Positions 3,060 to 25,519 of a stretch of 64,000 nt of DNA are shown here, piece after piece. A model generated the notes under the pieces. It worked only from the letters and a program-made list of their open reading frames with translations, searched no databases and was not told the origin of the DNA. Location: contig CBDAOI010000004.1 in NCBI GenBank assembly GCA_965198005.1, positions 1,984,001 to 2,048,000 of the forward strand, in the 5' to 3' direction. Position numbers and translations under genes: made by a program. The stretch's first letter is position 1. The number at the start of each line of letters is the position of its first letter. Source of the DNA: Spirochaetia bacterium. Lineage in GTDB: Bacteria; Spirochaetota; Spirochaetia; SZUA-6; Bin103.

Positions 3060-3365
3060 CTCGCCCTCTATGGCGCGGGAACGCCTGTGCTGGGCGCGCG
3101 GCGGATCGCGTCCGACGGGACGCACGAACGGACGAACCGTCAGTTACCTGTGCACTTCGCCGACTGGGTCTGCGGTGCCCGATGATGCGCCGACACTACG
3201 ACGCCAGGCGCCGCCTCGAGCTGACCGGCCACGTCACGCCCATACCCACCCCAGCGCTGGTTGACCTGGTCGGCCGCGTTCCGGGCGCGCCTCCGGAATA
3301 GCCAACGGGCTCCCAGCCCCCGACGTCCTGTCGCGGCCTGGGAGCTACATGCCACCCGTGGCGGC
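3060..3365 (+). repeat. Mosaic repeat containing 39-aa ORF 3182-3301
   Basis: Inverted homolog of 9715-10010. Confidence 0.85.
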
Positions 3366-3512
3366 ACGGCGGCGTCATCCCGGCCCGAGCGAAGGGTCGG
3401 CATCAAGAATCTCGGCGTCGGGGTAGAGGTGATCAATCGGTGCCCCGTGCGGTTGCAGCGCCGGCGTCCAACGCCTCGATGGCCGGGCGACCTCAGCTCG
3501 GGGTGAGCTGGC

Positions 3513-4463
3513 CTATGGCCGTGCCGAGGCGGCGGCACCGTAGCGGCCGAGGCGGCCGCGCAGCCGCGGGTCGAGCAGGTCGCGCACCGCGTCACCGAAC
3601 ATGTTGAGGCTGTAGACGACGACGGTCAGGCACAGCCCCGGCCACAACGCCAGATGAGGCGCTACCTCCATGTACCGCCGCCCCTCGCGGCTGAGCATGC
3701 CGCCCCAGCTCGGTATGTCCGGCGGCAGGCCGAAGCCGAGAAAGCTCAGCGCCGCCTCCGACATGATCACCCCGCCGACGTTGATGCTGAAGATGATGAT
3801 GATGGGCGCGGCGATGTTGGGCAGCACGTGGCGCAGCAGCGAACGCCGGCGCGAGCTGCCGATTGCCTGCGCCGCCTGGAAGTAGACGTTCTCCTTCACC
3901 CCCAGCACTGCGCCGCGCACCACCCGCGAGGCCGGGATGCCGCCCGACACCCCCAGCACGATGATGATCTGCGCCATCCCGCGGCCGGCAATCGACATGA
4001 TCGTCAGCAGCAACAGCAGCCCCGGGAACGCTATCCAGGCGTCGACGAAGCGCTGCGTCACCAGGTCCAGCCGCCCGCCGATGAAGCCGGTGGTGCCGCC
4101 GATCAGCACCGCCACCACGACGTTGAGGGCCGTGGCGGCCAGCCCCACCGTCAGCGACAGTCGCGCACCGTGGATGAGGCGGCTCAGCAGGTCGCGCCCC
4201 ACGTGGTCGGTGCCCAGCAGGTACTGGGCCGAGGGGGCCTGCAGGCGATCGCGCAGATGGATTTCCTCGAAGCGATAGGGCGCCAGCCCATCGGCGAAGA
4301 TGCTGACCAGCACCAGGAGCAGGATGACGATGCCGCCGGCGGTGCCCAACGGCTGCTCACGCACCAGCCGGCCGAAGAACCGCCGCGCTCCAGCCTGCCC
4401 AGCCGCAGCCGCCCCAGCGGCCGGCTCGGCGCCGGCCGGCGTCAGCTGTGATACGTCACCCAC
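3513..4463 (-). CDS. ABC transporter permease, DppC/OppC type
   Basis: LGTDHVGRDLLSRLIHGARLSL; SWGGML; GDAVRDLLDPR. Confidence 0.93.
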   Translation of the reverse strand: MGDVSQLTPAGAEPAAGAAAAGQAGARRFFGRLVREQPLGTAGGIVILLLVLVSIFADGLAPYRFEEIHLRDRLQAPSAQYLLGTDHVGRDLLSRLIHGARLSLTVGLAATALNVVVAVLIGGTTGFIGGRLDLVTQRFVDAWIAFPGLLLLLTIMSIAGRGMAQIIIVLGVSGGIPASRVVRGAVLGVKENVYFQAAQAIGSSRRRSLLRHVLPNIAAPIIIIFSINVGGVIMSEAALSFLGFGLPPDIPSWGGMLSREGRRYMEVAPHLALWPGLCLTVVVYSLNMFGDAVRDLLDPRLRGRLGRYGAAASARP

Positions 4464-4486
4464 GGGCTTCCCTCATTGCTTTTGCC

Positions 4487-5488
4487 TCACTCGTAGCGAA
4501 TCCGCGGGTCCAGCGACGCGTACAGCAGATCGGTCAGCAGGTTAACGAACACCACCACCGTGGCGAAGAACAGGTTCACCCCCGACACCACCGGGTAGTC
4601 GCGGTCATTAAGCGCATGAAGCATCAGCCGCCCCAGCCCCGGCAGGTTGAAGATGTTCTCGATGATGACCGAGCCGCCCACCAGGATCGGCAGCTGCATG
4701 CCCACCAGCGTCACCACCGGGATGATGGCGTTCTTGACCGCGTGGCGTAGGATCACCGACCGCTCCAGCAGACCCTTGGCCCAGGCAGTGCGAATATAGT
4801 CCTGCCGCAGCACCTCCAGCATCATGGTGCGCGTCATGCGCATGGTGCTGGCCGACAGGTAGGTGCCAAGGATCAGGCTAGGGATGAGGAACATACCGAG
4901 GTTGCCGAGTGGGTCTTCCGTGAAAGGAACCCACTTCATCGGTGGCGACCAGGCCCACCAGATGGCCGGGTAGATCATCACCATCGTTCCCAGCCAGAAG
5001 TTGGGCGTCGCCAGCCCCATGATGGCGACCGACCGCCCCACGTAGTCGGCGGCGGTGTACTGGCGCACCGCCGAGTAGATGCCGACCGGCAGGGCTATCA
5101 CCAGCCCGATTACGATTGCCATGACACCGAGCTCAATGGTTACCGGCAATCTACTTAATATCTTCTCCTCTACCGTCCAAGTGCCAAGCAGTGATTTGCC
5201 AAGGCTACCCTGGAGGAGACCTTTAAACTGGGACTCACCGGTAACCCAGTCAGCGGTCGGCAACACTCCTATCCAGCGTCCATACTGCACGTAGACGGGC
5301 ACGTCTAATCCCAGTATACGCATAACAGCTTCACGGTCAATCACCCCCGCTGCTTGCAATTCCTGCCTACCCACCATTACGTCTATTACATCGCCGGGGA
5401 TGAAGCGCACCGAGAGAAAGACCAGGATGCTCAATATGAACAAGGTGGAGATTATGAGCAATAACCGCCTGATGATATAGGCTCTCAT
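4487..5488 (-). CDS. ABC transporter permease, DppB/OppB type
   Basis: MRAYIIRRLL start; QDYIRTAWAKGL; RDYPVV; LDPRIRY. Confidence 0.93.
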   Translation of the reverse strand: MRAYIIRRLLLIISTLFILSILVFLSVRFIPGDVIDVMVGRQELQAAGVIDREAVMRILGLDVPVYVQYGRWIGVLPTADWVTGESQFKGLLQGSLGKSLLGTWTVEEKILSRLPVTIELGVMAIVIGLVIALPVGIYSAVRQYTAADYVGRSVAIMGLATPNFWLGTMVMIYPAIWWAWSPPMKWVPFTEDPLGNLGMFLIPSLILGTYLSASTMRMTRTMMLEVLRQDYIRTAWAKGLLERSVILRHAVKNAIIPVVTLVGMQLPILVGGSVIIENIFNLPGLGRLMLHALNDRDYPVVSGVNLFFATVVVFVNLLTDLLYASLDPRIRYE

Positions 5489-5636
5489 GTGATACACCTG
5501 ATTGCGATTCCCCCCGTCATTCCGGCGAAAGCCGGAATCCACTTAGACAATCTCGTCGCCTTCTCTCCCCCCATCATTGCGGTGAAAAACCTGCCCCGGA
5601 CTGGATCCGGGGCCGCAATCCACTTAGACAATCTCG

Positions 5637-5975
5637 TCATATCCCGACACGTCGGGATCGGGACGAAGGGTCTGGGGAGTGTGGGGGGCTGCGATCCCAT
5701 GCGTCGGCCAAATCTTCCCAGTAGGGATTCAACGATTCAAAAAGGGCGACCTTCTTGCTGCGGAGCCAGCCTTTAATCTGTTTCTCCCGCGCAATTGCCG
5801 ACTCGACGTCGTCTGTAGCCTCGTAATGCACGAGCTTTGAGATGTTATACCTCTTAGTAAAACCGTCCACCACCTTGAGGCGGTGTTCATACACTCGACG
5901 CGTCAGGTCGTTGGTCACCCCAGTGTAAAGCGTTCCTCTATAGCTGGCCATGAGGTAAACGTAGTACTGGCTCAT
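5637..5975 (-). CDS. GIY-YIG nuclease (UPF0213-like) flanked by REP-like palindromes
   Basis: YYVYLMAS..GTLYTGVTNDL.RRVYEH...AIAREKQIKGW.R.KK; flanking GTCATTCCGGCGAAAGCCGGAATCC (5516-5540) and GTCACCCTGAG..GAAGGGTCT. Confidence 0.85.
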   Translation of the reverse strand: MSQYYVYLMASYRGTLYTGVTNDLTRRVYEHRLKVVDGFTKRYNISKLVHYEATDDVESAIAREKQIKGWLRSKKVALFESLNPYWEDLADAWDRSPPHSPDPSSRSRRVGI

Positions 5976-6269
5976 TACCTGTCTAAGCCCCCGCACCCAG
6001 AACCGCTCCTCCGCCTTAGGCGGATCATGAACGATGAAAATGGCTGTGCATTTGTCACCCTGAGTCCTTCCAGGAAGGACGAAGGGTCTGGGGCGGTGCG
6101 CAGTTTCCATTGGCGGGGTGGCCTCGCATTGCATACGAGCCACACGCCCCCGACCCCAGATTCTTCGCCTGCGGGCTCAGACGCCGTCCTGAGCCTGCCG
6201 AAGGAATGACATTTTATCAGGAATGACGGCTCCCTCCCAAGTGTCTCTCAGGCAGTCATCAATGACTAT

Positions 6270-6306
6270 GGGAGCTGGGAAGCTTGAGCCTCCCAGCTCC
6301 CTTTTT
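6270..6306. terminator. Stem-loop downstream of SBP gene
   Basis: GGGAGCTGGGA-agcttgagcc-TCCCAGCTCCC-TTTTT; the U-tract is on the + strand. Confidence 0.55.
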
Positions 6307-6336
6307 CCCTAAGGTGAGCCACAAGGGGTGAACCCA

Positions 6337-8295
6337 CTAACGACCCATTGCTTCCTTCAGCTCACTATCAATCCAGAGGCGGGCGAGGATGGACATATAT
6401 TGCATATCTCCCATCGAGTATTCACCGTTAAAACCTTCGACCCACGGCTGGCTCACCTGAAACCTTGGTTCCAGAGGACCCCATATCTGATTGTGCTGCT
6501 TTATCACGGCCAAATCAAACTCTCTAGATGCCTGCATCTCCTCCTCAACGGTGGTAGCGGCCAAAAAGGCATCATAGGCGGCGGTCAGCTCAGGGGTCTC
6601 GACTCCGCCCACGTAGTCGCGCGTAGATGGATTGTCCGAGCGATAAGCGCGCGTGGACCAGGCAGGGCTCGAAATGGCCATGCCGCCACCGGTAGATGCC
6701 TGCATCTCCTCCTCAACGGTGGTAGCGGCCAAAAAGGCATCATAGGCGGCGGTCAGCTCAGGGGTCTCGACTCCGCCCACGTAGTCGCGCGTAGATGGAT
6801 TGTCCGAGCGATAAGCGCGCGTGGACCAGGCAGGGCTCGAAATGGCCATGCCGCCACCGGTCATCTCATAATCATGTGCTCCTCTCTTAGCGACCCAAGT
6901 CGCCGTGTCATATATATTAATCGTTACATCAACGCCAATATCAGCAAAGTAGCCGGCAGCTATTTCCACATAGCCCAAATCCGAGATGTCGCGGTGAGAA
7001 TAGTCGACCTTGAATCGAACGCCGTCCGCGCCCCGCGGATATCCAGCCTCGTCAAGGAGCTTCTCAGCACCTTCCGGGTCATACCTGTAGTATTGCTTGA
7101 GCTCTTCGGGCCACTCTTCAACTGGGGTGTAATACCCCTTGACGAAAGACACCGCAGGAGATTCCCACTTTGCTAAACCGGCATAGTAGGTATCGTTAAT
7201 CGTCTCGAGGTCCAGTGCCATCTGCAGTGCGTGGCGTACCCTGATGTCGTCAAAGGGCGCGTTGCGAATGTTCAGACCAATGGCAGCAAACGCCGCCTGG
7301 TGATAAAAGCTCGCCTCGAGTTCGGGGTTGGTCTTCTGGAGGCTCTTTACCACGTCTAGGGATTTTATTTCACCGACGCCGGCTTTAGCTGTTATATCAA
7401 TCTTACCCGAGCGTAGTGCCGATATACGTGTTGCTTCTTCTGCCATATAGAGGGCACTTACCTGGTCAATATAGGGCAGGCGGTTCTCAGGGTATTTTTC
7501 GTCGTAGCCCCAGTAGGCAGGATTCTTGGTCCAGGTGATAGAGACGTCTTCGACATAGTCAGTCAGCTCAAAGGGCCCGGTGCCGACCACGTTCTTCCAA
7601 TCCGTATAGTCGCCGTATTGCTCGATTACCTCGGGGGGTAATATCCAGTGCAAAGCTTCGTTGATGATAACCTCTAGCGCATAGACGGACGGCTCCGTCA
7701 GCTTAAAAACAACCGTATATTTGTCGGTGGCCTCTATCGATTCCCATGGCATATTGACAGCAACTCTAGGACTAAGGGGACGTTCGGTGAAGTCACCCAG
7801 AACGGTATTACGCTGCCAGGTATATACGACATCATCGGCAGTTAGCTCCCGACCGTTCATCGGTGCCTTGTTATGCCAGTAAACCCCCTGGCGGATGTGG
7901 AAGATGTAAGTCAGTGGGTCGGGCGTTTCCCAGCTTTCCGCCAGAGACCCTGTGAAGATAAACGTAGGGACATAGGGGTTTCTAAAGTCAAATTCTTTCC
8001 TATCTAGTCCCCAGTCCCCGAGGGCGAGAGTCTCATTAACACTGGCTATGAGGAAGCCCGCATAGCCGCCAGTAACAAAGGGGTCAGTAGTAGAGTAATC
8101 TAATCTATAGGGAAAGGTTAATGTCCCGCCATACTCTGGTGCCACCACGACCTTGCCGGTGGTCGGGTCGGTCACATACTTCTTGTCAGCCGCGGCTGCC
8201 GGTGCCTCTTCTGCGCCAGCGGCCCACAGGCCGGTTGCGGGCAAAACGAGGACCAACGCAATCGCGAAGGACCTTGCAAAAAATATCTTCATCAT
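6337..8295 (-). CDS. ABC substrate-binding protein family 5, with 56-aa internal duplication
   Basis: Signal peptide; LAESWE, VGTGPF and LLDEAGY motifs; 168-bp perfect repeat 6525-6860. Confidence 0.93.
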   Translation of the reverse strand: MMKIFFARSFAIALVLVLPATGLWAAGAEEAPAAAADKKYVTDPTTGKVVVAPEYGGTLTFPYRLDYSTTDPFVTGGYAGFLIASVNETLALGDWGLDRKEFDFRNPYVPTFIFTGSLAESWETPDPLTYIFHIRQGVYWHNKAPMNGRELTADDVVYTWQRNTVLGDFTERPLSPRVAVNMPWESIEATDKYTVVFKLTEPSVYALEVIINEALHWILPPEVIEQYGDYTDWKNVVGTGPFELTDYVEDVSITWTKNPAYWGYDEKYPENRLPYIDQVSALYMAEEATRISALRSGKIDITAKAGVGEIKSLDVVKSLQKTNPELEASFYHQAAFAAIGLNIRNAPFDDIRVRHALQMALDLETINDTYYAGLAKWESPAVSFVKGYYTPVEEWPEELKQYYRYDPEGAEKLLDEAGYPRGADGVRFKVDYSHRDISDLGYVEIAAGYFADIGVDVTINIYDTATWVAKRGAHDYEMTGGGMAISSPAWSTRAYRSDNPSTRDYVGGVETPELTAAYDAFLAATTVEEEMQASTGGGMAISSPAWSTRAYRSDNPSTRDYVGGVETPELTAAYDAFLAATTVEEEMQASREFDLAVIKQHNQIWGPLEPRFQVSQPWVEGFNGEYSMGDMQYMSILARLWIDSELKEAMGR

Positions 8296-8314
8296 TTCTT
8301 CCTTGGATGTTATT

Positions 8315-8505
8315 TCGGGAGTATTGCGGAGCGGATTGCCGCTCCCTGGCTACTCTGACGCCCGCAACCGCGGGCGCGCCCGCCAACGCGGGCGACCAGT
8401 CTGAGTCAAATTTGTGAAGCGCGCGGCGTGTGACTCACCGGGTTCACCCGGGCTCACGCCGCGCGCGCGTGCGGTTCTTTCAGTATCATTCGAACCTCCT
8501 TCTTC
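8315..8505 (-). promoter_or_regulatory. Conserved SBP leader: SD + uORF MILKEPHARAA* (8454-8489) + two predicted pseudoknots
   Basis: Conserved in three SBP leaders; pairings gcgcgcggcgtg/cacgccgcgcgc, tgagtca/tgactca, ctgg/ccag and gagta/tactc. Confidence 0.75.
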
Positions 8506-8834
8506 GCTAGATCTACGTCGGGATCTGCGCTACAACGCCACGCGTGGCGGTGGTCTGAGCAGCAGTGAGTCTGAATGGCCGGCAACGCCGGCGGTGGGTT
8601 TTGCGGGCAGTCAGTCGCGGGCAGCGATCCGGGACGGCTGCGGTCGACGGGAAGGGCGCGGGCGGTCCGCATGCCGGTTCGGCGATGGACCGAGCCGGCG
8701 CCACGGATAGCTACGGCGGTGGTGAAGGCGACGGCGTGCGCGGGGTCGCGTAGGGCGCGATCAGCCGGAGCGGTTAGTTGTTTCTCGGTCTCGGTTTGAA
8801 AAGTTGGGGGAGGGGGATGCACTGGCTGCGTCAC

Positions 8835-9625
8835 AACTAACCGGTCACTGCGCTGCCTGTCATCGTGACCCTTCATGACCATCCGTCGAACCCCAGGTGA
8901 GGCACGCTAGCATAGGCGCGGCGCGCCGTCAACGACTCGTGGGGGTCACCGGGGTGAGCGAAGGTCACCGGCAACCCGTCACTGCGCTGACTGTCACCAT
9001 GGCGCTTCATCTCCGATCCGTCCGACCCCAGGCGAGGCAAGCTTGCTATGGACGCGACCACCCGGTCAACCACTCGGAGCTCACCAAACGTGAGCGCCAA
9101 CCGGTCACTGCGCTGACTGTCATCATGGCGCTTCATCGGCATCCGTCGACCCCAGGCCAGGCATGATAGCGTGGGCGCGGCGCACTGTCAACGTTTCGGA
9201 GCTCACCAAACGTGACCGCCAACCGGCCACTGCGCTGACTGTCATCATGGCGCTTCATCATCGATCCGTCGAACCCCACCCCAGGCGAGGCAAGCTTGCT
9301 ATGGACGCGACCACCCTGTCAACGACTCGGACGTCACCGACCGTGACCGCCAACCGGTCACTGCGCTGACTGTCATGATGGCGCTCCATCCGCATCTGAT
9401 CAACCCGAATCACCATCTTCCGCGGGCGACTCAGAAAAGTCAACGGCGATTCTGGCCTCGTGCACCTTGCCACGCCCGGCTCTGCGATTCGGCTGAACTT
9501 GCGCGCCTCACCCCTAACCAGTCACTGCGCTGCCGCCATCCTGGCGCGTCGTCGTGGCGCATCATCTGCATTCGCCGAACCCCTAACGGTGCAGTCTCTC
9601 GCGAGCGCGGCCACCCTGTCAACAG
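8835..9625 (-). repeat. Tandem array of promoter-like units pointing to the SBP operon
   Basis: TTGAC(N) on - strand near 8932, 9069, 9191, 9322, 9443 and 9622, with shared gtcactgcgctgactgtcatcatggcgc block. Confidence 0.85.
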
Positions 9626-9649
9626 CGCCGCCCCCTGCGTGCGCGGCCG

Positions 9650-10693
9650 ACCGGCAGCCGGGGCGGTGTCACGCCCGATGCCCGGTGACCTCCACCCGTG
9701 GCGTCTCCCTGGCGCCACGGGTGGCATGTAGCTCCCAGACCGCGACAGGACGTCGGGGGCTGGGAGCGGTTTTGCTATTCCGGAGGCGCGCCCGGAACGC
9801 GGCCGACCAGGTGAACCAGCGCCAGGCTGTGTATGGGCGTGACGTGGCCGGTCAGCTCGAAGCGGCGCCTGGCATCGTAGTGTCTGTGCATCATCGGGCG
9901 CCGCAGACCGAGTCGGCGAAGTGCACAGGTAACTCATCACACGACTGACGCGTCGTCCGTTCCTGGGCCCCGTCCATGGGGCCCAACACAGGCGTTCCCG
10001 CGCCATGGAGGGCAAGCGTGCGGCTGTCCTGTGGACAGCTCGGGGCGCGTCCGGAGCAACGTGCACCATCATGCTCACCAGCGCCGAGTCATGGAACCCG
10101 CTGGCCGAACCGGTCAGTCTGAAAGCAGCGACTGGCATCGCAGGGTCTGTGCATCATCGTGGCGAAGGTCGGAGGCCACGCCACACGAGCCGTGAACCCG
10201 CTCCCCACCGACCGTCGGCAGGCCGCTCGGGGAACAACACCACTGACCTCGGGGTGAGTCCGGCGGGGAAGCCGGCACCAGGTACCTCACCACACGACTG
10301 ACGCGTCGTCCGTTCGTGGGCAGACACGGTCGGTCGCGAACAAGGGGCCTTCGCGCTCCCTCTGAATCGGCCAATGGTAGCGCTGCCACCTCCCATGTGC
10401 CTCCGCCCGCGGACTGCGTCGCTGCCGGCCGATGCCCCATGGGCTACGACAAGGTGCGCCGCCGCTTCATCGGCCGCGGCAGAGTTCGTAATCGGTGACC
10501 TCCACCCGTGGCGCCCTCCCTGGCGCCACGGGTGGCATACGGCCCACAGACCACGACACGAGGTCGGGGGCTGTGGGCTGCTTCGAACTCCGGAGGCGGG
10601 TCCGGAAGGCTGCTCAACAGGGCAGCCATCGCCGGGCTCCGCATGGGTGCTGCGGCGCCGGTCAACTCGAAGCGGATGCTCCGATCTGGACCC
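9650..10693 (-). repeat. Mosaic SLOG-flanking repeat: two hairpins, two core palindromes, degenerate SLOG fragment and 39-aa ORF 9775-9894
   Basis: Reverse-complement homology to 1008-1432 and 3060-3365; VVLFPERPADGRWGAGSRL remnant near 10180-10245. Confidence 0.85.
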
Positions 10694-11290
10694 TCAGTAC
10701 TCGTCGTCGCAGAAGCCGTCGCGGAAGGTATGGGGCACCACCCAGTAGCCGTCGACCGTGGCGAACAGATCGGAAGCCACCACCCGGCAGTAGGCCGGCG
10801 CCGCAGGCGGCCGCGAGGCCACTACGAACAGCGGCTTAAGATGGTAGAGACTCGATCGAAACACGTGCCGGGAGCCTGGACCCCACTGCCGGTCGGCAGG
10901 CCGCTCGGGAAACAGCACCACCAGCGAGCTGCGCTTGACCAGCCACAGGGTGCGCCGCGCCAGCGCTGCGTTGGGCGGGATGCCCTCGGGCACCACCGCC
11001 GAGGCGAACAGCCCCTCGGCCCGGCAGCGCCGTGCGCGCTTGCCGAACGCGCAGCCGACGAACACCTCGTCGGGGCCGCATTCTGAGTCAGCCAGCGCCT
11101 TGCGGAAGGCGGCATCCACCCCGGCCGCGCAGCCCACGAAGAACCCAAACCCGTGCCGGCGAAACTGCTCGATCAGCGCTCGGCAGGTCGAGGGCTCCAC
11201 CTGCCCGCAGCGGCTGCCGGCCAACAACACCGAACGCGCCGCCACGTTGAACTGCAGCGCGGCATCGCCTGCTACCTGAAATGTCACCAT
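10694..11290 (-). CDS. DprA/Smf-like SLOG-superfamily protein, copy 2 (198 aa)
   Basis: Same length as and clear paralog of 411-1007; same TTGACT...AGGAGGT upstream block. Confidence 0.65.
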   Translation of the reverse strand: MVTFQVAGDAALQFNVAARSVLLAGSRCGQVEPSTCRALIEQFRRHGFGFFVGCAAGVDAAFRKALADSECGPDEVFVGCAFGKRARRCRAEGLFASAVVPEGIPPNAALARRTLWLVKRSSLVVLFPERPADRQWGPGSRHVFRSSLYHLKPLFVVASRPPAAPAYCRVVASDLFATVDGYWVVPHTFRDGFCDDEY

Positions 11291-15838: not shown

Positions 15839-16630
15839 GGGGTCGAGAGCGGAGCATCCGCTTCGAGTTGACCGGCAAGGCCACGCCCATGCACAGCCTG
15901 GCGCTCGCCGACCTGCTCGGTCGCCTTCCGGCCCCCCCTCCGGACCAGCGAAGCAACCCACAGCCCCCCGACCTCGTGTCGTGGTCTGTGGGCCGTATGC
16001 CACCCGTGGCGCCAGGGAGGGCGCCACGGGTGGAGGCCACCGATTACGAACTCTGCCGCGGCCGATGAAGCGGCGGCATGACGTGGCAGCGCTACCTCTC
16101 ACGTCACCACCATCCGCGCCGGCACCACCGGCCAACCGTCACTAGCGGTGCGCCCGCGGCATCAGCACAATGGCGATACCTGCGATCCGGCAAAAGGGCC
16201 CATTGGGCGATTCAGAATGCGTCCCAAGGCCCCTTGTTCGCGACCGACCGTGTCTGCCCACGAACGGACGACGCGTCAGTCGTGTGATGAGGCTTCGCCG
16301 AGTCGGTCTGCGGTGCCGCGGTGCCCTGGCGCTGCTTCGGGCTGACCGGCCACGTCACGCCCATAACGAGCGCGGCGCTTGTCGACCTGGTCGGCCGCGT
16401 TCCGGGCGCGCCTCCGGAGTAGGACGCGGATGTTACTACCGAATAGCGAAGGTATTGTAAACAGCCGGTGCAGCTCTGACTCGCGCAGGGGATCGAGAAT
16501 AGCCACCAGGCTCCCAGTCCACGACGTCCTGTCGCGGGCCGGGAGCTGCATGCCACCCGTGGCGCCATGGAGGGTGCCTCGGGTGGAGGTCACGCTGCAT
16601 CAGACGTGATACCGCGGGGGGTGCCGGTCG
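15839..16630 (+). repeat. Mosaic SLOG-flanking repeat
   Basis: Hairpin ~16000-16033; core palindrome 16257-16291; ~100 bp identical (inverted) to 22450-22552. Confidence 0.85.
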
Positions 16631-17745: not shown

Positions 17746-17944
17746 CCGACTACCGACTACCGACTACCGACTACCTAACCGCGCGACAGCCAGCCGCTCG
17801 GCGCCGGTGCTGACCGCGGCACCATCGATCCGCGCGGCACACAGCCGTGCGTGTGGCGGCGGACCGCGTCGGCCGCAACCTCCACCAGTCTACATCAACC
17901 GGCGTTGCCGGGACTTCAGAAGAGAGGGGCACATCTGCGCCCGA

Positions 17945-18118
17945 CCGAGGGGGTGCAAAATGATACTCAAAGAGCCGCACGCGCGCGCGGCGTGAGCCGG
18001 GGTGAACCCGTTGAGTCACACGCCGCGCGCTCTTAGTGAATTTGACTCAGACTGGCCGTCTGCGTTGCGGGCATGAGAGTAGCCAGGGAGCGGCAAGTCG
18101 CTCCGCAATACTCTCGAA
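17945..18118 (+). promoter_or_regulatory. Conserved SBP leader: uORF MILKEPHARAA* (17960-17995) + two predicted pseudoknots
   Basis: Same peptide as 8454-8489 with synonymous changes (ctg/ctc, gaa/gag); same stems. Confidence 0.75.
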
Positions 18119-18139
18119 AATCAAGATCCGGAGTTACGC

Positions 18140-19939
18140 ATGAACTTTGTAAAAATTAGAATGACCTTCGCGTTTGCGTTGGTCCTCGTAATGACCGCAA
18201 CCGGCCTCTGGGCCGCTGGCGCAGAAGAGGCGCCGGCAGCCGCCGCCGACAAGAAGTACGTGACCGACCCCACCACCGGGAAGGTGGTGACCGCGCCAGA
18301 GTACGGCGGGATAATCACCTTTGCCAGGCGGGGTGACCCTCCGCATTGTGACTCCTTTTTCTCGCACGCGCCGGGAGTGGTCACTAGTGGCGTTGCCGAG
18401 AAGCTAGTCCACGGGAACTGGGGAATAGATAGGGACGAACGCGACTTTCGGACTGGCTTCAATCCTCCATCTGCCATGATAGGACAACTGGCTGAAAGCT
18501 GGGAACAACCCAACGACACAACTTATATCTTCAACATCCGCCAGGGCGTTCACTGGCATGATAAGCCCCCGATGAACGGTCGGGAGTTAACTGCCAAGGA
18601 TATAGAATATAACTATCAGCGTTATACTGGTCTAGGCAGCGGCTTCACCGAACCTAGCCCCTATATTGGGGATTTGCTCACCCGTGAGCCATGGGAATCG
18701 ATAACCGCTACCGACAAATGGACGGTTGTTTTTAAGCTGAAGAGGCCATCAGCCACTGCGCTGCATACTATCTTCGATAGCGCGTACAATTTTATATACC
18801 CCCCCGAGGTAATCGAGCAATACGGTGACTTAAAGGATTGTAAGAACCTGGTCGGCACCGGGCCCTTTATGCTAACTGAGTTGGTCGAGGGCAGCTCTGC
18901 GACCTGGATGAAGAATACTGACTACTGGGGCTACGACGAAAAGTACCCAGAGAACCGCCTGCCCTACGTTGACGAGTTAAGGGGCCTGATTATGCCAGAA
19001 GACCCAACACGTCTGGCGGCACTGCGCACGGGTAAGATTGATTACCTAGGTCACCTCGGCACCTCTCAAATATTTACTATCGACGAGGCAGAGAGCCTCC
19101 GGCTGACCAACCCTGAAATCGAACTGCATACGTTTGTCTTGCGGTCAGAAAACTCTTTTGTTGCTGGCATACGCCCCGACAACCCGCCCATTAACGACCT
19201 CAAGGTACGCATAGCAATGCAGAAGGCGTTGGACCTTGAGACAATTAACAATACCTACTTTAGGGGTTGGGCAGACTGGAAACCTATGGGGATTAATGGC
19301 ACTGGTTTAAAGGGGTATCACATCCCATTTGACGAGTGGCCCGAAGAGCTCAAGCGAGAATATACCTATGACCAGGAAGGGGCCGAAGCGCTCCTTGATG
19401 AGGCCGGGTATCCGCGCGGCGCCGACGGCATTAGATTCAAGACCGTCTTGAACCACCTCGATCGGTGGGATTTAGGCTTTAGAGAATTGGTTGCCTCCTA
19501 CTGGGCTGAGATTGGCGTTGATATTGAGATTAGGGAGATGGACGGAACCAAAATTGGCGCTATGATACGCGAACATACTTATGAAGGTATCGCCGATGGA
19601 ACTCCGGGCTACGAGGAGGGACCTCTGAAGCAGGTAGCCTGGTTTACCTCGGACTCATCATGGAACCCCCCTAATGTCAGTGACCCGGTTTATGACGCCA
19701 TGATTGAAGCCGCCGAAGCTGCTACCGGTGAGGAGCAGAAGAGGCTGATTACAGAGGCAGATATGTACGTTATAAAAAACCACTGGTTTATATGGGGTGG
19801 TAGAGCTCCACAGTTTAGCGCGAACCAGCCGTGGCTCATAGGTCATAACGGTGAAATGGCACTAGGAACCATGGACTTTATTGGCCCCTTCGCCCGCTTC
19901 TGGATTGATTCCGAGCTGAAGGAAGCAATGGGTCATTAG
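18140..19939 (+). CDS. ABC substrate-binding protein family 5
   Basis: Signal peptide; LAESWE, VGTGPF and LLDEAGY motifs. Confidence 0.93.
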   Translation: MNFVKIRMTFAFALVLVMTATGLWAAGAEEAPAAAADKKYVTDPTTGKVVTAPEYGGIITFARRGDPPHCDSFFSHAPGVVTSGVAEKLVHGNWGIDRDERDFRTGFNPPSAMIGQLAESWEQPNDTTYIFNIRQGVHWHDKPPMNGRELTAKDIEYNYQRYTGLGSGFTEPSPYIGDLLTREPWESITATDKWTVVFKLKRPSATALHTIFDSAYNFIYPPEVIEQYGDLKDCKNLVGTGPFMLTELVEGSSATWMKNTDYWGYDEKYPENRLPYVDELRGLIMPEDPTRLAALRTGKIDYLGHLGTSQIFTIDEAESLRLTNPEIELHTFVLRSENSFVAGIRPDNPPINDLKVRIAMQKALDLETINNTYFRGWADWKPMGINGTGLKGYHIPFDEWPEELKREYTYDQEGAEALLDEAGYPRGADGIRFKTVLNHLDRWDLGFRELVASYWAEIGVDIEIREMDGTKIGAMIREHTYEGIADGTPGYEEGPLKQVAWFTSDSSWNPPNVSDPVYDAMIEAAEAATGEEQKRLITEADMYVIKNHWFIWGGRAPQFSANQPWLIGHNGEMALGTMDFIGPFARFWIDSELKEAMGH

Positions 19940-19962
19940 AGGCTTCATCCCCTTTTTTTTGC

Positions 19963-20016
19963 GAGCTGGGGAGCCGCCTCCGAGCGCACTATTGAGCGGC
20001 TTCTCGGCTCCTTTTT
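19963..20016 (+). terminator. Probable intrinsic terminator after SBP
   Basis: gagctggggagccgc...gcggcttctcggctc-cttttt. Confidence 0.55.
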
Positions 20017-20074
20017 CCGCTTGTCTAGGAGAAGAAGGACCAAGGCGAATTGGGAGAACTTATAAGTGATACCT

Positions 20075-20412
20075 ATGGTCAAATAGAATCAATCGATCTA
20101 AAATCGGTGGTGCTGGATCCTCGCAATCCTTGAAGAGATCCTAGAGGAATCTCCCACGGCAGCAATAAAGGTGCTATGGGAATCGGAGGATCAATCTTGT
20201 ACTAGCGCTCTTTGGTCATGTACTGTCGGAAGATGGGAAATTGATTGGAAAAGGGATGAAATGATGTACATAATCGAGGGTGAATCGGAACTCGCAGATC
20301 AGTTCGGACACTCTCAAGCATTTGCGGCGGGTGATTTTTCATGTTAGCAGGAGGCTAAGACGATGTGGAATGTAGAACGGCCTCTTCTGAAGATCTTTTA
20401 ATTTTCGCCGAT
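20075..20412 (+). pseudogene. Cupin (DUF861-like) remnant between SBP and permease
   Basis: LWSCTVGRWEIDWKRDEMMYIIEGESEL..GDF then frame break. Confidence 0.5.
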
Positions 20413-20436
20413 GAATCCCGAAAGGTTCTGGCTGCC

Positions 20437-21402
20437 ATGAGAGCCTACGTCATCAGGCGGCTCTTACTACTCCTCCCCACACTGTTTATCATGTCCGTCC
20501 TGGTCTTTCTGTTGGTCCGCTTGATCCCCGGCGATGTAATAGACGCTATGGTGGGTGAAATTGTGTTCTATGGTAGAGGTGATACAGCAGTAGACCGTGA
20601 AGCTCTTGAGCGCATGCTTGGATTAGACGTACCTGGCTACGTGCAGTATGGACGTTGGATAGGAGATATTATTCTGCATGGCACCCTTGGCGACTCACTG
20701 ATTGGCGGTTGGAGAGTGGAGGAGAGGATACTAGGTAGACTGCCGGTAACTATTGAGCTTGGCCTCATGTCGATCGTCATTGGGCTGGTGATAGCACTGC
20801 CGGTCGGCATCTACTCGGCGATTCGCCAGGATACGGCCCCCGATTTCCTGGGGCGCTCCGTCGCCATCATCGGCCTGGCAACGCCGAACTTCTGGCTGGG
20901 GATCATGGTCATGCTATACCCGGCAGTGTGGTGGGGCTGGTCGCCACCGATGGAACTGATTCGGTTCACGGAAGACCCGCTGGGCAGTCTCGGAGTGTTC
21001 ATCATCCCGAGCCTGATTCTGGGTACCTACCTGTCTGCAGCCACCATGCGGATAACGCGGACGATGATGCTAGAGGTGCTGCGGCAGGATTACATCCGGA
21101 CGGCCTGGTCGAAGGGTCTCAAGGAGAGGGTGGTTGTGGTACGGCACGCTGTCAAGAATGCCCTCATCCCGATCGTTACCCTGGTGGGCCTGCAGTTTCC
21201 TATCCTGGTGGGTGGCTCGGTCATCATGGAGAACATATTCAACCTACCGGGGGTGGGTCGTCTCATGGTGGCCGCGCTCACCGACAGAGACTACCCGGTG
21301 GTCTCCGGAGTAAACCTGTTCTTCGGCACGGCGGTCGTGGGGGCCAATCTCATGATCGATCTGGTTTACGGCTACCTGGATCCGCGGGTCCGTTACCAAT
21401 AG
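20437..21402 (+). CDS. ABC transporter permease, DppB/OppB type
   Basis: MRAYVIRRLL; QDYIRTAWSKGL; LDPRVRY. Confidence 0.93.
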   Translation: MRAYVIRRLLLLLPTLFIMSVLVFLLVRLIPGDVIDAMVGEIVFYGRGDTAVDREALERMLGLDVPGYVQYGRWIGDIILHGTLGDSLIGGWRVEERILGRLPVTIELGLMSIVIGLVIALPVGIYSAIRQDTAPDFLGRSVAIIGLATPNFWLGIMVMLYPAVWWGWSPPMELIRFTEDPLGSLGVFIIPSLILGTYLSAATMRITRTMMLEVLRQDYIRTAWSKGLKERVVVVRHAVKNALIPIVTLVGLQFPILVGGSVIMENIFNLPGVGRLMVAALTDRDYPVVSGVNLFFGTAVVGANLMIDLVYGYLDPRVRYQ

Positions 21403-21413
21403 CACGCGCGGGA

Positions 21414-22289
21414 ATGGCTGCTTTCCTTGTCAGGCTGTGGCGAGAGAAATCACTCGGTGCTATCAGCGGGATCATCATCCTGATATTGATTCTCGTGGCT
21501 ATCTTTGCCGATGCTGTGGCCCCGTATGAGTATCTCGAGATACACTTGGCAGACCGGCTGACCGGCTCATCAGCCGCGTATCCGCTGGGTACCGACCACT
21601 TGGGACGAGACCTGTTGAGCCGCATCATCTACGGGGCGCGGCTGTCGTTGATCGTCGGTCTGTCGGCGACTGCAGTGAATGTCGTGGTCGCCGTGCTGAT
21701 CGGCGGCACGTCAGGATTCTTCGGCGGACGACTCGATCTTGTCGTGCAGAGATTCGTCGATGGCTGGATGGCCATCCCGGGACTGCTGCTGTTGTTGACG
21801 ATCATGTCCATCGTAGGGAAGGGGATGCCACAGCTGATACTGGTCCTGGGGATATCAGGAGGCATCGGCGGCTCGAGATTGATCAGAGGCGCCGTGATAG
21901 ACATCAAGGAGAATGCCTATTTCCAGGCGGTCGAGGTGATTGGCGCCTCGAAGTGGCGGACATTCATCGGCCATGTCCTGCCCAACATCATGCCGGTCGT
22001 GATCATCGTCTTCAGCATCAACGTCGGCGGGGTGATCATCAGTGAGGCTTCGCTGAGCTTCCTCGGCTTCGGTCTGCCCCCCGACGTTCCCAGCTGGGGA
22101 GCGATGCTCAGCCGCGAAGGGCGTCAGTACATGCAGCAGGGGCCATGGCTGGCTCTCTGGCCCGGTCTCTGCCTGACGATTGTCGTCTACAGTCTGAACA
22201 TGTTCGGCGACGCGGTGCGTGACCTGCTTGACCCGCGGCTGAGGGGTGGCGGGGGACGCCTGGGAGCCGATGCCGCCAGGTCGGTCTAA
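21414..22289 (+). CDS. ABC transporter permease, DppC/OppC type
   Basis: LGTDHLGRDLLSRIIYGARLSL; GDAVRDLLDPR. Confidence 0.92.
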   Translation: MAAFLVRLWREKSLGAISGIIILILILVAIFADAVAPYEYLEIHLADRLTGSSAAYPLGTDHLGRDLLSRIIYGARLSLIVGLSATAVNVVVAVLIGGTSGFFGGRLDLVVQRFVDGWMAIPGLLLLLTIMSIVGKGMPQLILVLGISGGIGGSRLIRGAVIDIKENAYFQAVEVIGASKWRTFIGHVLPNIMPVVIIVFSINVGGVIISEASLSFLGFGLPPDVPSWGAMLSREGRQYMQQGPWLALWPGLCLTIVVYSLNMFGDAVRDLLDPRLRGGGGRLGADAARSV

Positions 22290-22354
22290 GAGAGCGCGCC
22301 TGCGGCCGCGCGCGCGGGTGCCCGTCCACCCCACTCAGCAGGCAACCTTCGGGG

Positions 22355-22634
22355 TGTCACGCCGGATGCTCGGTGACGTCCACCCGTAGCGCCCTCCCTG
22401 CGCCACGGGTGGCATGTAGCTCCCGGCCCGCGACAGGGGCGTCGTGGGCTGGGAGCCTGGTGGCTATTCTCGATCCCCTGCGCGAGTCAGAGCTGCACCG
22501 GCTGTTTACAATACCTTCGCTATTCGGTAGTAACATCCGCGTCCTACTCCGGAGGCGCGCCCGGAACGCGCCCGACCAGGTCAACCAGCGCCGGGCTGTG
22601 TATGGGCGTGTTCGGCCGGTCAGTCCGAAGCAGC
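22355..22634 (-). repeat. Mosaic repeat, left part (continues at 25086-25321 after IS66)
   Basis: Inverted homolog of 16290-16620. Confidence 0.85.
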
Positions 22635-22713
22635 GTAAGCGTCCGGTGGCCCCCACCTACCGCGGCTGAGAATGGAGGGTTCATAGTCTCTCGACCGAAG
22701 ATAGGAGGGGCGA

Positions 22714-23034
22714 ATGAGACTGGGACGAGAGCACTGGATAGGGCAGGTGGAGGCGTGGCGCAGCAGCGGTCTGAGCCAGGCGGAATACTGCAAGCGCCAC
22801 CAGGTGGTGTACAACACGATGAACGGGTGGGCGCGCCGGCTGGCGGCCGAGCGAGAGGACGCCGATCGACCGCTGGTGGAGCTGAAGGCGTCACCGACCA
22901 TGACCGCCAGCGACCTGGAGCATCGCCCGGCGATCGAGCTGGTGGTGGCGGGCCGGTATCTGCTGCGGCTGTGGCCCGGGACGCGGTGCGAGCAGCTGCG
23001 TGAAGTGATCACCGTCCTGGAGGAGCGGCAGTGA
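22714..23034 (+). CDS. tnpA: IS66 accessory protein TnpA
   Basis: W...VEAWRSSGLSQAEYCKRH...W motif; position in element. Confidence 0.85.
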   Translation: MRLGREHWIGQVEAWRSSGLSQAEYCKRHQVVYNTMNGWARRLAAEREDADRPLVELKASPTMTASDLEHRPAIELVVAGRYLLRLWPGTRCEQLREVITVLEERQ

Positions 23035-23384
23035 TCGGGCTGGATCTGGGCGAGGCGCGGATCTTCGTGCGCCCTGGGGCCACCGACATGCGCAAGCAGA
23101 TCAACGGACTGGCGCTGATCGTGCAGGAGCAGATGCAGATGAGCCCGTTTGATCCGACGCTGTTCGTGTTCTGCAACGCACAGCAGCGGATTCTCAAGGC
23201 GCTGTACTGGGACCGCACCGGGTTCTGTCTGTGGATGAAGCGGTTGGAGAAACATCGGTTTCCCTGGCCGCGCAACGCCGCCGAGGCGCGCCAGCAGATC
23301 GACGAGAGCCAGCTGCGGCTGCTGCTGAGCGGCGTGAATTTCTGGAGCCGGCACGAGGAACTCTTCTATACAAAGGTGGGCTAA
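23031..23384 (+). CDS. tnpB: IS66 accessory protein TnpB
   Basis: TDMRKQINGL...LFVFCN...LYWDRTGFCLWMKRLEK..FPWP. Confidence 0.93.
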   Translation: MIGLDLGEARIFVRPGATDMRKQINGLALIVQEQMQMSPFDPTLFVFCNAQQRILKALYWDRTGFCLWMKRLEKHRFPWPRNAAEARQQIDESQLRLLLSGVNFWSRHEELFYTKVG

Positions 23385-23436
23385 ACCCCTGGGCTAACCA
23401 TTGCCTGCCCGACATTGTCCGTGCTAGTTTTGGTTC

Positions 23437-25020
23437 GTGGCCGACAGCCTGACCCTCACCAGAGAGAACCAGAAGCTGCGGTCCGAGAACCAGGAGCTAA
23501 CCGTCCAGACCAACGAGCTGACCATCGAGGTTAGACAGCTGGCCATTAAGCTGGAGGTCGTCAACGACGAGCTGGCCAAGATCAAGAGCCGATTCTTCGG
23601 CCGTGCCAGCGAGAAGCTGAGCGTCGAGGAACGGCAGCAGATGCGGCTGTTCGACGAGGCGGAACAGGCCGCCGCCGAGAATCAGGAGCAGCCAGCCCCG
23701 ACCGAGGCGGCCACCGAGGTGCCGACGCACACCCGCCGCAAGCCGGTACGTCGGCCACTGCCGGAGTCACTTCCTCGCGAAGAGGTGGTGGTGGACATCA
23801 GCGACCAGGACAAGCACTGCAAGTGCGGTCACCAGATGGTACGCATCGGCCAGGAGGTCTCCGAGCGCCTCGACGTGATCATGCCGAAGGTGAAGGTGAT
23901 TCGCACGGTGCGGCCCAAATACGCCTGCCATCACTGCGAAGGCTCCGGGGACGAAGATCGACCTGCGGTGCGCATCGCGCCGGTGCCCAAGACGCTGATC
24001 CCGAAGGGCATCGCCACAGCCGGGCTGCTGGCCTTCATCGTCACCGCCAAGTTCTGCGACGCGTTGCCGCTCTACCGGCAGCAGAGTCAGTTTGCCCGCA
24101 TCGATGTGGATCTGCCACGCAGCACCATGGCCGACTGGATGCTGACTACCGCTGTCGCGTGCGAGCCGGTGATGAAAGAGATGCAGCGCAAACTGCGTTC
24201 AGGCCCGGTGCTGCAGGTGGACGAGACCAGGATCCAGGTGATGAAAGAAGAGGACCGAGCCAACACCACCCAGAGTTACATGTGGGTGGCCCGCGGTGGT
24301 CCGCCCGGCGAGCCGGTGCTGATCTATCACTATGCCCCCAGTCGTGGCGCGCCGGTGGCCGAACAGATGATCGGCGACTACGAAGGGTTTGTGCAGACCG
24401 ACGGCTACGAGGCCTACGATCGCAGATGCGCAGGCGATGGCATCGCCCATGTGGGTTGCTGGGCGCACGGCCGGCGCGGGTTCACCGACGCCAAGGAAGC
24501 TGCCACCAAGACCGCCAAGAAGGCGGGCGCCGCCGAGCAGGCGCTGGCGTTCATCGCCAAGCTGTATGGGGTTGAGTCACAACGCGACAGCTATGCCAGC
24601 CTCGATGAGTTCAACCAGGCCAGGCGAGCCCAGGTGGAGCCGATCCTCGAGAAACTGCGGACCTGGCTCCATGCCAAGAGCGACCAGGTTCTGCCTGGTT
24701 CAACGCTCGGCAAGGCGGTCGCCTACATGCTCGGGCAGTGGCCCAAGCTGACCCGCTACCTGGACTCCCCCCACCTCACTCCCGACACCAACGCCGTCGA
24801 GCAAGCCATCCGACCGTTCGTGCTGGGTCGCAAGAACTGGCTGTTCTCCGGCAGCCCACGCGGCGCGGCCGCCAGCGCCACTCTCTACAGCCTCATCGAG
24901 ACCGCCAAGGCCAACCGCCTCGAGCCCTACCACTACCTACGCGAACTCTTCGAGAAGCTGCCGCTGGCCAAGACTCCCGCCGACTACCGAGCTCTCATCC
25001 CCAAACGACGGGTCTACTAA
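23437..25020 (+). CDS. tnpC: IS66 transposase TnpC
   Basis: Coiled coil, Zn ribbon, VDET, QTDGY, CWAHGRR, RKNWLFSGS. Confidence 0.95.
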   Translation: MADSLTLTRENQKLRSENQELTVQTNELTIEVRQLAIKLEVVNDELAKIKSRFFGRASEKLSVEERQQMRLFDEAEQAAAENQEQPAPTEAATEVPTHTRRKPVRRPLPESLPREEVVVDISDQDKHCKCGHQMVRIGQEVSERLDVIMPKVKVIRTVRPKYACHHCEGSGDEDRPAVRIAPVPKTLIPKGIATAGLLAFIVTAKFCDALPLYRQQSQFARIDVDLPRSTMADWMLTTAVACEPVMKEMQRKLRSGPVLQVDETRIQVMKEEDRANTTQSYMWVARGGPPGEPVLIYHYAPSRGAPVAEQMIGDYEGFVQTDGYEAYDRRCAGDGIAHVGCWAHGRRGFTDAKEAATKTAKKAGAAEQALAFIAKLYGVESQRDSYASLDEFNQARRAQVEPILEKLRTWLHAKSDQVLPGSTLGKAVAYMLGQWPKLTRYLDSPHLTPDTNAVEQAIRPFVLGRKNWLFSGSPRGAAASATLYSLIETAKANRLEPYHYLRELFEKLPLAKTPADYRALIPKRRVY

Positions 25021-25519
25021 CCGTTTTCCACCGCTCCTTGCCGCCCACACCGGCGGTGCGGTTCCCCGGACGCTTACGAAGCAGCGCCTGGCATCATGTT
25101 GTTGGCGCATCATCGGGCACCGCAGACCGAGTCGGGGAAGTGTACAGGTAACTCATCACACGACTGACGCGTCGTCCGTTCGTGGGCCCCGTCCATGGGG
25201 CCCACCATAGGCGTTCCCGCGCCATGGAGGGCGCGGGCGATTGCGCGCGTCCGGAGTCACCACCCATCACGCTCACCAGCGACGGGTCATGGAACCCGCT
25301 GACCGAACCGGTCAGTCTGAATGCGCATTCCGGTGAACCTTTCCAGTGAATCCGGTGGAACGTTACCACCGCCGACGCGTGAGGCGTCATCTCGATGCTG
25401 GTTAGAAGTGGTAAGTTTGGTCCTCCCCCGGAGGGTAGGTCAAGGTGTATTCGGGTGATTGTCAGAGCACTGCTCCCTCTTAAAAACAGGTGGCGGTAAA
25501 AGGGGGTGGGGGTCCGGGG

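Follow-up and report, generated by a model that had tools for sequence, protein, structure and literature searches.

A 64,000-nucleotide stretch of DNA from a Spirochaetia bacterium (genome G000, C4:1984001-2048000; called the window in the following, with its positions written as w and a number) contains a ~20-kb imperfect mirror. At its centre the genes for a Xer-like recombinase, a primase-like protein and a helix-turn-helix (HTH) regulator are bracketed by inverted genes for SLOG-like proteins; repeats and ATP-binding cassette (ABC) transporter operons follow on both outer sides. We regard w10458-16077 (5.6 kb) as an intact-looking copy, named E1, of a conserved tyrosine-recombinase mobile element with resident ABC loci beside it, at a probability of roughly 0.6. 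The ABC operons, their leaders and their promoter-like arrays would thus be host loci from a family of about 150 members and not specific to the element, and the mirror would arise from the inverted ends of the element together with its location between two divergent members of the ABC family. A first-pass annotation had seen in this region a candidate integron-like device for the capture and expression of the ABC operons. Overall, its observation was confirmed and its reading partly supported.

The element, its relatives and the mirror

E1 consists of two divergent operons, HTH-SLOG and primase-Xer-SLOG, both of which end in terminal inverted repeats of ~0.93 kb. A SLOG copy makes up the bulk of each repeat, and a double-hairpin module forms its end. 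All its genes are open. The genome (4.89 Mb, 4 contigs, 65.8% GC) also holds a second copy, E0, which is truncated in xer. The features of both copies in the window are listed here, where X is the 185-bp end module and G and L numbers stand for sampled genomes and extracted loci, respectively.

w2-310 (+), HTH gene (XRE type), part of E0, 5' end cut by the window edge; Pfam HTH_3, 4.5e-09
w314-1241 (+), right inverted-repeat arm of E0; SLOG-like gene w411-1007, X core w1026-1203, palindrome w1166-1199
w10458-11387 (-), left terminal inverted repeat of E1; X core w10493-10675, palindrome w10502-10535, SLOG-like gene w10694-11290
w11347-12327 (-), Xer-like tyrosine recombinase; Phage_integrase 1.7e-40, 50% to L026 XERb
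w12429-14672 (-), primase-helicase-like protein of 747 aa; homologues with PF08275 DNAG_N and PF27228
w14731-15141 (+), XRE-type HTH regulator, divergent from the primase gene; HTH_3 1.2e-13
w15145-16077 (+), right terminal inverted repeat of E1; SLOG-like gene w15242-15838, X core w15858-16043, palindrome w16000-16033

The arm that the first-pass annotation placed at w1-1510 (HTH-SLOG-repeat) exists, and it was identified as the right end of E0. This copy starts 2.9 kb upstream of the window (C4:1981137-1985433, 96-98% to w11966-16292); its primase gene lies upstream of the window and its xer gene is cut after codon 122. Of 29 SLOG matches in the genome 6 are full length, and one intact and one xer-truncated element were found.

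The mirror itself is real. Inverted pairs were found for the SLOG arms (w10691-11387/w15145-15841, 697 nt, 87% identity; w314-1241/w10460-11387, 928 nt, 86%), the permease genes (w4493-5215/w20674-21396, 79%; w3528-4265/w21537-22274, 73%), the binding-protein genes (w7316-7750/w18688-19122, 76%), the arrays (w9219-9356/w16720-16857, 93%; w8859-8987/w17369-17497, 95%) and the bracket repeats on the far sides of the operons (w3142-3377/w9699-9934, 91%; w16356-16529/w22437-22610, 95%). The non-coding arms, w8296-10693 (reversed) and w15839-18139, are collinear module by module. Because the arms differ by 5-27%, a foldback chimera is excluded.

Synteny was examined in 401 sampled genomes of the phylum and in a set of related loci, 26 from genome bins and 80 from metagenomes. 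This revealed the inverted SLOG bracket around the Xer, primase and HTH core to be a conserved property of the element family. In G032 (35% GC) the order is SLOG(-) HTH(-), then PRI(+) XERa XERb SLOG(+), where PRI is the primase-like gene and XERa and XERb are tandem recombinases; the inverted repeats (5817-7071/12695-13950) measure 1.25 kb and are 96% identical. G133 carries HTH, PRI, XERa, XERb and SLOG on a contig that begins with an inverted copy of the stretch preceding SLOG. The 80 metagenome loci showed XER upstream of SLOG (13), HTH upstream of SLOG (7) or SLOG alone (60, mostly on contigs of 1-4 kb), with no SLOG neighbour other than XER or HTH among the five query proteins. Indeed, in bins and metagenomes together every detectable neighbour upstream of SLOG was a co-oriented XER or HTH gene, although cargo or part of a primase gene intervened in a few of the bin loci. 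No metagenome or bin contig had two SLOG copies, as expected where assemblies break in long inverted repeats. Since the layout recurs in a distant genome and, in part, on many metagenome contigs, the mirror-image SLOG pair is best taken as the element's own terminal inverted repeat. SLOG occurs in 6 and primase relatives in 32 of the 401 genomes, and the three best primase matches are SLOG-bearing genomes. This patchy occurrence would fit mobile DNA.

Relatives carry cargo inside the arms, between core and SLOG arm, namely an SMC-like ATPase with an HNH protein (L044), a pPIWI-associated nuclease with a RelA/SpoT domain (L053) or an SNF2 helicase (L027). Judged by sequence, this cargo looks defence-like, and it was never ABC. 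A 96-aa open reading frame (ORF) of unknown family lies directly 3' of SLOG in at least 80 related loci (e.g. L040 6073-6363); it is missing from the window's genome, and an Atlas look-up gave no usable match. In G032 SLOG is followed by an unrelated 125-aa ORF, which is not conserved elsewhere. A gene for a 225-aa signal-peptide protein, convergent to SLOG after the hairpins described below, is whole in 8 loci (e.g. L090 2829-3509 (-)). At least 8 other loci, including L040, L044, L073, L088, L097, L098 and L100, have a stub consisting of its last 26 codons, and in L082 this stub is present twice in tandem. Such stubs suggest a possible attachment-site duplication at the 3' end of the gene. 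tRNA genes were found neither in w1-30000 nor in 20 related loci.

In the same genus, a 7-Mb genome contains repeated units of primase tail, XER and SLOG, each joined to ABC genes. A more distant subfamily is represented by L030 (G216:C4), where an inverted repeat of at least 5.6 kb (6499-12163/13837-19501, 100% identical, with XER-XER-PRI) was noticed. Its copies are 1.7 kb apart near the contig end, and it could be a genuine mirror duplication or else a foldback in the assembly.

Proteins and end module of the element

The SLOG call proved correct at the level of fold and superfamily. An alignment-based AlphaFold model of the 198-aa protein (pLDDT 93.9) matched DprA (5mll, 4e-05), ShosA (8zva), YpsA (2nx2), the SLOG domain of ThsA (7uxs) and LOG (5zbj) in Foldseek, with probability 1.0 and TM values of 0.45-0.54. 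No family in Pfam, PHROG or NCBIfam matched the protein; among its 120 listed homologues 119 have no Pfam domain, and the remaining one, a partial match (43% of the query), carries PF13517. On the predicted structure, the small protein is thus a member of the SLOG/DprA-like Rossmannoid superfamily.

Pfam also supports the calls of a Xer-like tyrosine recombinase and of XRE-type HTH genes at w2-310 and w14731-15141. Xer has a catalytic domain (PF00589, 139.1 bits) and a SAM-like N-terminal domain (PF13495, 42.8 bits). It stays below the cut-offs of the integron-integrase models TIGR02249 (135 bits, cut-off 265) and PRK15417 (67.2, cut-off 435) and reaches none of the chromosomal models (XerC subfamily 260.8/371, XerD 224.1/329.6, XerC 213.9/335.15; score/cut-off). 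By sequence comparison, it is the orthologue of XERb, the second of the two tandem recombinases in relatives. The HTH protein at w14731-15141 scores 58 bits as RstR-like, below cut-off. For the 747-aa protein the primase call holds by way of its homologues. PF08275 (DnaG core) stands beside PF27228 in many of the 120 homologues listed, 3 of which are named DNA primase; the homologue in G032 (L026) reaches 27.6 bits for DNAG_N (cut-off 26), and the window protein has a Walker-A-like GKS motif. Its alignment profile gave 0 matches to PDB sequences at E up to 1, and of 161 pattern matches in an IMG/VR scan with the primase alignment 0 were confirmed. We therefore call the protein primase-helicase-like, an assignment that is not proven.

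What the first-pass annotation called a mosaic repeat is X, the end module of the element, dispersed over the genome. X is a discrete unit of 185 bp (w15858 to about w16043), found at 61 loci with 29 palindromes in G000; 38 of the 61 loci flank ABC operons. In the window, an inner hairpin with a GTCCT loop is followed by a 14-6-14 palindrome, CCACCCGTGGCGCC-AGGGAG-GGCGCCACGGGTGG, which lies 44 bp inward from the outer end of the inverted repeat. The spacers of the palindromes at the two element ends are inverted (CTCCCT and AGGGAG). Among the 69 related loci with enough sequence, 44 had a perfect stem of at least 8 bp (8-21 bp) around a 6-nt NTCCNT loop (0 of 69 shuffles), located behind the 96-aa ORF, 314-401 nt after SLOG and in one case at 493. 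The arms of these hairpins comprise 18 different sequences, and a second hairpin with a complementary loop of the type AGGAC/AGGAT comes next. Covarying arms around a fixed loop point to a hairpin that may be recognised as a structure; whether the module acts as terminator, priming site or recombination site is not settled. Homology breaks did not pile up in the palindrome spacer, as 4 of 84 high-scoring segment pairs (HSPs) end at w16010-16039. An Rfam search of L040, L078 and L101 at E up to 0.1 returned only a spurious miRNA hairpin.

Further copies surround E1, X' being a second or degenerate copy of the arm end that passes into a homologue of the permC 3' flank in its long form:

w9541-10377 (+), X', degenerate second arm-end copy; double hairpin, palindrome w9692-9724, SLOG fragment w10175-10246
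w16200-16717 (-), X' copy of the right arm; palindrome w16553-16586
w3019-3363 (-), X copy just 3' of left permC; 86% to w9713-10056
w22353-22635 and w25077-25321 (+), X copy 3' of right permC, split by IS66

The IS66 insertion sequence (w22636-25076, three ORFs) within this last copy had gone unlisted before. Other mobile DNA is dense in the window and comprises an IS21-type istA/istB pair within w27068-29637, an ISAzo13-type transposase gene at w43740-44540 and group II intron domains at w25546-25723, the sole Rfam match of the whole window at the gathering threshold.

From these parts a cycle can be proposed. Xer, or the pair in relatives, would recombine in the terminal hairpin module or close to it, a freed copy would be replicated by the primase-helicase, the HTH protein would keep the element silent and the SLOG/DprA-like protein would handle single-stranded DNA or a nucleotide signal. 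The element would integrate next to gene ends and later return to its own relic end modules, re-entering sites that already hold copies of the 185-bp module. Re-entry of this kind would produce nested X/X' layers and a repeated adjacency of element and ABC genes without capture of operons, and relics may accumulate at ABC borders because the lineage has ~150 near-identical operon borders.

The ABC operons and their tie to the element ends

As claimed before, each arm has an operon of one SBP5-type solute-binding protein (SBP) gene and two permease genes, which Pfam confirms (SBP_bac_5 and two BPD_transp_1). Neither operon has an ATPase gene. Their features are:

w3513-8295 (-), left ABC operon; permC w3513-4463, permB w4487-5542, SBP5 w6337-8295
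w8296-8838 (-), leader (LEAD) of the left operon; C-rich tract, GC hairpins
w8839-9396 (-), tandem array (ARR) of 122-bp units; sigma-70-like hexamers directed at the SBP gene
w16693-17775 (+), tandem arrays of 122-, 138- and 111-bp units; three sigma-70-like sites directed at the SBP gene
w17776-22289 (+), leader and right ABC operon; SBP5 w18140-19939, permB w20365-21402, permC w21399-22289

The left operon has Pfam matches to BPD_transp_1, OppC_N, SBP_bac_5 and GIY-YIG, and its leader contains an 11-codon upstream ORF (w8454-8489) behind a strong Shine-Dalgarno site. The GIY-YIG ORF (w5637-6143, (-)), also unlisted before, lies between SBP and permB, in a stretch without a second copy in the genome (coverage 1), and could be an insertion similar to a homing endonuclease. 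The window also has two tandem duplications that are exact (100%), w2300-2717 (208 bp) and w6525-6861 (168 bp). The latter is in frame within the SBP gene and leads to 652 aa, compared with 599 aa in the mirror partner; either a very recent event or an assembly error would explain them.

These operons belong to a large family. Each ABC gene has 139-149 near-full-length paralogues in G000 (tblastn), permeases being mostly 60-80% and binding proteins 40-60% identical. We counted 150 SBP loci and 117 complete operons (466,523 bp, 9.5% of the genome). In the window, SBP5/DppB/DppC-type genes occur at w3513-8295, w18140-22289, w51578-55439 and w60617-63998. The ATPase tail domain of the Dpp/Opp type has only 8 matches in the genome (four pairs), and many importer modules may therefore share few ATPases. 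With GC contents of 0.57 (SBP), 0.60 (permB) and 0.62 (permC), the genes lie below the genome (0.658).

Upstream of the 150 SBP loci, LEAD was found at 82, ARR at 34, X at 16 and SLOG DNA (within 3 kb) at 9; the arrays were co-oriented with SBP in 33 cases and present in both orientations in 1. Most ABC loci with LEAD or ARR are far from any element. In a FastTree tree of 94 permB+permC pairs (39 of 133 were dropped, having no adjacent partner or an internal stop) ARR required 23 changes (23.0 +/- 1.5 in shuffles) and upstream X 12 (11.4 in shuffles). Downstream X required 13 changes as against 15.9, and 2.7% of shuffles gave 13 or fewer. The right operon and its nearest paralogue have only w17949-22286 in common, that is 190 bp of leader and three genes, with no array and no repeat. 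From this limit of the match it follows that the ABC unit is the leader plus three genes and that arrays and X come and go independently.

The promoter-like character of the arrays was confirmed. We found 3 hexamer pairs on the right and 1 on the left (0.3 expected), all oriented toward ABC genes. The orphan arrays that were said to feed cargo do point into genes; their targets, though, are an epimerase/aldolase pair at 40.1 kb and, at 57.5 kb, a transposase of the IS4 type. In the first case (w39260-42040) X and an array are followed by a co-oriented, low-GC (0.50) pair of epimerase and HpcH-type aldolase genes, not ABC genes; in the second the transposase gene (w56305-57495) sits between the array (w57607-57720) and that array's SBP operon.

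Element ends and ABC borders are associated in a non-random way, and some functional or targeting link likely remains. A random 5.6-kb interval would have divergent SBP starts on both sides with a probability of 0.00125. On the 5' side the contact order SLOG-X-X'-array-leader-SBP is found at four loci (both window arms, C3:283835 and C4:1610704) and in several relics, and on the 3' side a palindrome lies 90-107 nt after the permC stop in four loci. In G000, neighbouring SBP genes are divergent and separated by less than 12 kb in 6 cases. E1 lies in the window pair; another pair encloses a frameshifted SLOG gene and relics of distant recombinases, and in a third there are other genes for tyrosine recombinases, 22-27% to Xer (pairs C3:684839-694015 and C4:353914-360568). 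In an 8-Mb genome of the same genus (G403; L144/L145, C5:3618000-3650000, rel 15983-16190) the orthologue of the right operon (98% over w17948-22343) still has the array and X', and of the right repeat the outer 43 bp remain; homology breaks within the palindrome, and there is no element gene within 18 kb upstream.

Several observations weigh against an element that merely lies next to resident ABC loci, or against the integrity of this copy. The link to ABC genes is one group. Full SLOG arms had an ABC gene within 2.6 kb on the outer side in 5 of 6 cases (0.21 for a random point). Evident segmental duplication makes the arms dependent on one another in this statistic: w421-9390 matches C2:25607-10315 in collinear order, through SLOG, X, ABC, leader and array, at 76-97%. 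Of 119 permC loci, 22 are followed by X within 1.5 kb, 19 of the 22 in one orientation, and plain neighbourhood does not fully account for the arm-ABC adjacency or for this orientation bias. In the distant relative L040, outward repeat units with a TTGAC box follow the hairpins, and outward promoter-like repeats may thus belong to the element after all. Other points concern the copy itself. The E1 arms are 87% alike compared with 96% in G032, so that E1 may be old or chimeric, and its lineage has neither XERa nor the 96-aa ORF, so that it may be defective. G032 is the only two-armed, fully assembled relative. Neither an excision product nor an empty site nor a duplicated target turned up; G403 was considered as an empty site and rejected, as its other side is unlike the left flank of the window. 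The hairpin lies between convergent genes in 8 loci and could, at least in part, be a plain bidirectional terminator. Finally, the 747-aa protein itself has no Pfam match, so that its primase identity leans on homologues, and its AlphaFold model (6-row alignment, mean pLDDT 47.2) was not used for a fold search.

Rival readings, known systems and significance

Among the other readings, a passive contribution of the element to the growth of the ABC family is unlikely but the most probable. Dispersed X copies and arm relics would act as portable homology or secondary recombination sites at which ABC operons are duplicated and rearranged, without any dedicated capture. This would agree with the segmental duplication just mentioned, with the repeated element-ABC units of the 7-Mb genome, with the mild clustering of downstream X on the permease tree, with the 38 of 61 X loci that flank ABC operons and with the breakpoint inside the palindrome in G403. 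However, most operons have no detectable X (97 of 119 downstream, 134 of 150 upstream), and permeases that are 60-80% identical imply that much of the expansion predates element copies that are 85-98% alike. Moreover, HSP ends are not concentrated in the palindrome spacer.

The integron-like platform of the first-pass annotation, in which Xer would use the repeats to capture, shuffle or invert ABC cassettes and promoter arrays would drive their expression, is quite improbable. It could draw on the contact order shared by the four loci, on the inverted X copies that bracket each window operon, on the operon-directed promoter-like sites, on the epimerase/aldolase pair that replaces an ABC operon behind X and array, and on the outward units of L040. 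Against it, X and arrays are upstream of only 16 and 34 of the 150 SBP loci, both are distributed on the permease tree as in shuffles, and the ABC duplication unit leaves them out. The operons bring their own conserved leader (82/150), those in the window are not each other's nearest paralogues, and relatives have non-ABC cargo inside the arms. The claim that the ABC operons are captured or shuffled cargo was thus not borne out, SLOG DNA being near only 9 members of a ~150-member family, and the integron analogy fails on the integrase (135 compared with 265 bits) and on the kind of cassettes. A role of the element in capture or expression of ABC operons is unsupported; we keep a slim chance for it because the link between ends and borders goes beyond chance and because L040 has outward TTGAC units.

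It is very improbable that Xer works as an invertible switch which flips the core, or ABC segments bracketed by X, and so changes the operon read from element promoters. The inverted spacers of the end palindromes would suit such a switch, and the FLP/FRT system of the yeast 2-micron plasmid likewise has a recombinase inside long inverted repeats. A joint of opposite strands (w10461/w16224) occurs in contigs of 2 of 4 public runs; like the parts without contig cover, it is not used as evidence. Its shorter side has only 29-32 letters, and the joint may derive from another copy. Flipping a symmetric SLOG-to-SLOG unit alters nothing obvious, the arrays travel together with the ABC operons inside the X pair, and perfect palindromes are unlike the two different half-sites expected for the two Xer proteins of relatives.

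An assembly artefact, with a mirror produced by foldback or repeat collapse, can practically be dismissed: the exact tandem duplications justify some local doubt and the short-read contigs are too fragmented to bridge the mirror, but the arms are 73-95% alike where a foldback should be near identical, the layout recurs in G032, the right arm is 98% conserved in G403, and contigs cover 30 of 30 bins of w8000-18500 in three of four runs and 28 of 30 in the fourth. The public runs with a third to over half of the sampled words of the stretch (23 listed, all as short contigs, none long enough to cover the mirror) include sponge metagenomes and coded organisms.

The preferred reading, a tyrosine-recombinase element between resident ABC loci, can be compared with known systems. 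The part of PMC10214605 considered here divides tyrosine-recombinase transposons into five groups (ICE/IME, SE, GInt, RIT and Tn554). The element family, with ~1-kb ends that each encode a DprA/SLOG-fold protein, fits none of them as described there. It resembles SE, GInt, RIT and Tn554 in its tandem recombinases (XERa-XERb of relatives), terminal inverted repeats and cargo, and no conjugation genes were seen in it. In contrast, these groups have ends of 19-34 bp and no replication gene according to the same part of PMC10214605, whereas the present element has a primase-helicase-like gene and an XRE repressor in addition to its long coding ends. The window copy has only one recombinase, unlike these multi-recombinase groups; with one here and two in relatives, the recombinase trio of RIT was not found. 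In place of the gene sets of SE (intA-tfp-intB-srap) and GInt (ginABCD) there are primase, HTH and SLOG genes, where tfp, srap, ginC and ginD were compared by description.

Tycheposons of Prochlorococcus are, in the section of bioRxiv 10.1101/2020.12.28.424599 used here, cargo-carrying integrative elements that target tRNA genes. They integrate at tRNA genes with direct repeats, in contrast to the long inverted repeats and the lack of tRNA genes, in w1-30000 and 20 loci, in our case. Polinton-like viruses and PgVV share long terminal inverted repeats, a tyrosine recombinase, a predicted primase or primase-helicase and the ability to integrate; as far as PMC4642659 was covered, they are ~20-kb, eukaryotic and capsid-encoding, whereas no capsid or packaging gene was seen in the present element. 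The likeness to class 1-type integrons lies in the idea of a tyrosine recombinase beside promoters that read into exchangeable genes. Those integrons have an IntI-type integrase and attC next to each gene; here the cassettes would be 4.5-kb three-gene operons with their own leaders, and the repeats are tandem promoter-like units plus a 185-bp double hairpin. A promoterless attC cassette array was not seen, as the neighbours are operons with a leader (82/150) and promoter-like units; attC itself was not searched. Tycheposons reportedly also have a replicative primase/helicase module, and they and P4-type satellites share a tyrosine recombinase and the integrative way of life with the present element. 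REP and BIME repeats are short GC-rich palindromic units at operon 3' ends in pairs of opposite orientation, and X is alike in this. X differs in that it forms the end of a recombinase element and has no link to a RAYT-type HUH transposase; no search for such a gene was made. The literature searched, supplementary tables not being covered, contained no description of the element or of the ABC expansion.

The element family would offer a new model for the movement and replication of recombinase elements with long inverted ends. Its hairpin with covarying arms and NTCCNT loop, together with the second hairpin of complementary loop, is a clear candidate for a recognition site and amenable to bench tests. 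There is also a slim chance that the end modules and outward promoter-like units are Xer-recognised "bookends" that were co-opted to duplicate, reshuffle and drive ~150 ABC modules. If true, whole operons would serve as the cassettes of a recombinase-based system in a sponge-associated spirochaete lineage. The system would be convergent with integrons, but its recombinase and its sites would differ from theirs, a DprA-like protein would be its accessory factor, and its ABC modules would share four ATPase pairs. About a tenth of the host DNA consists of ~150 related importer operons without ATPase genes. For the way in which symbiont genomes enlarge their uptake repertoires, it matters whether the element only homes to ABC borders or had a part in building the family.

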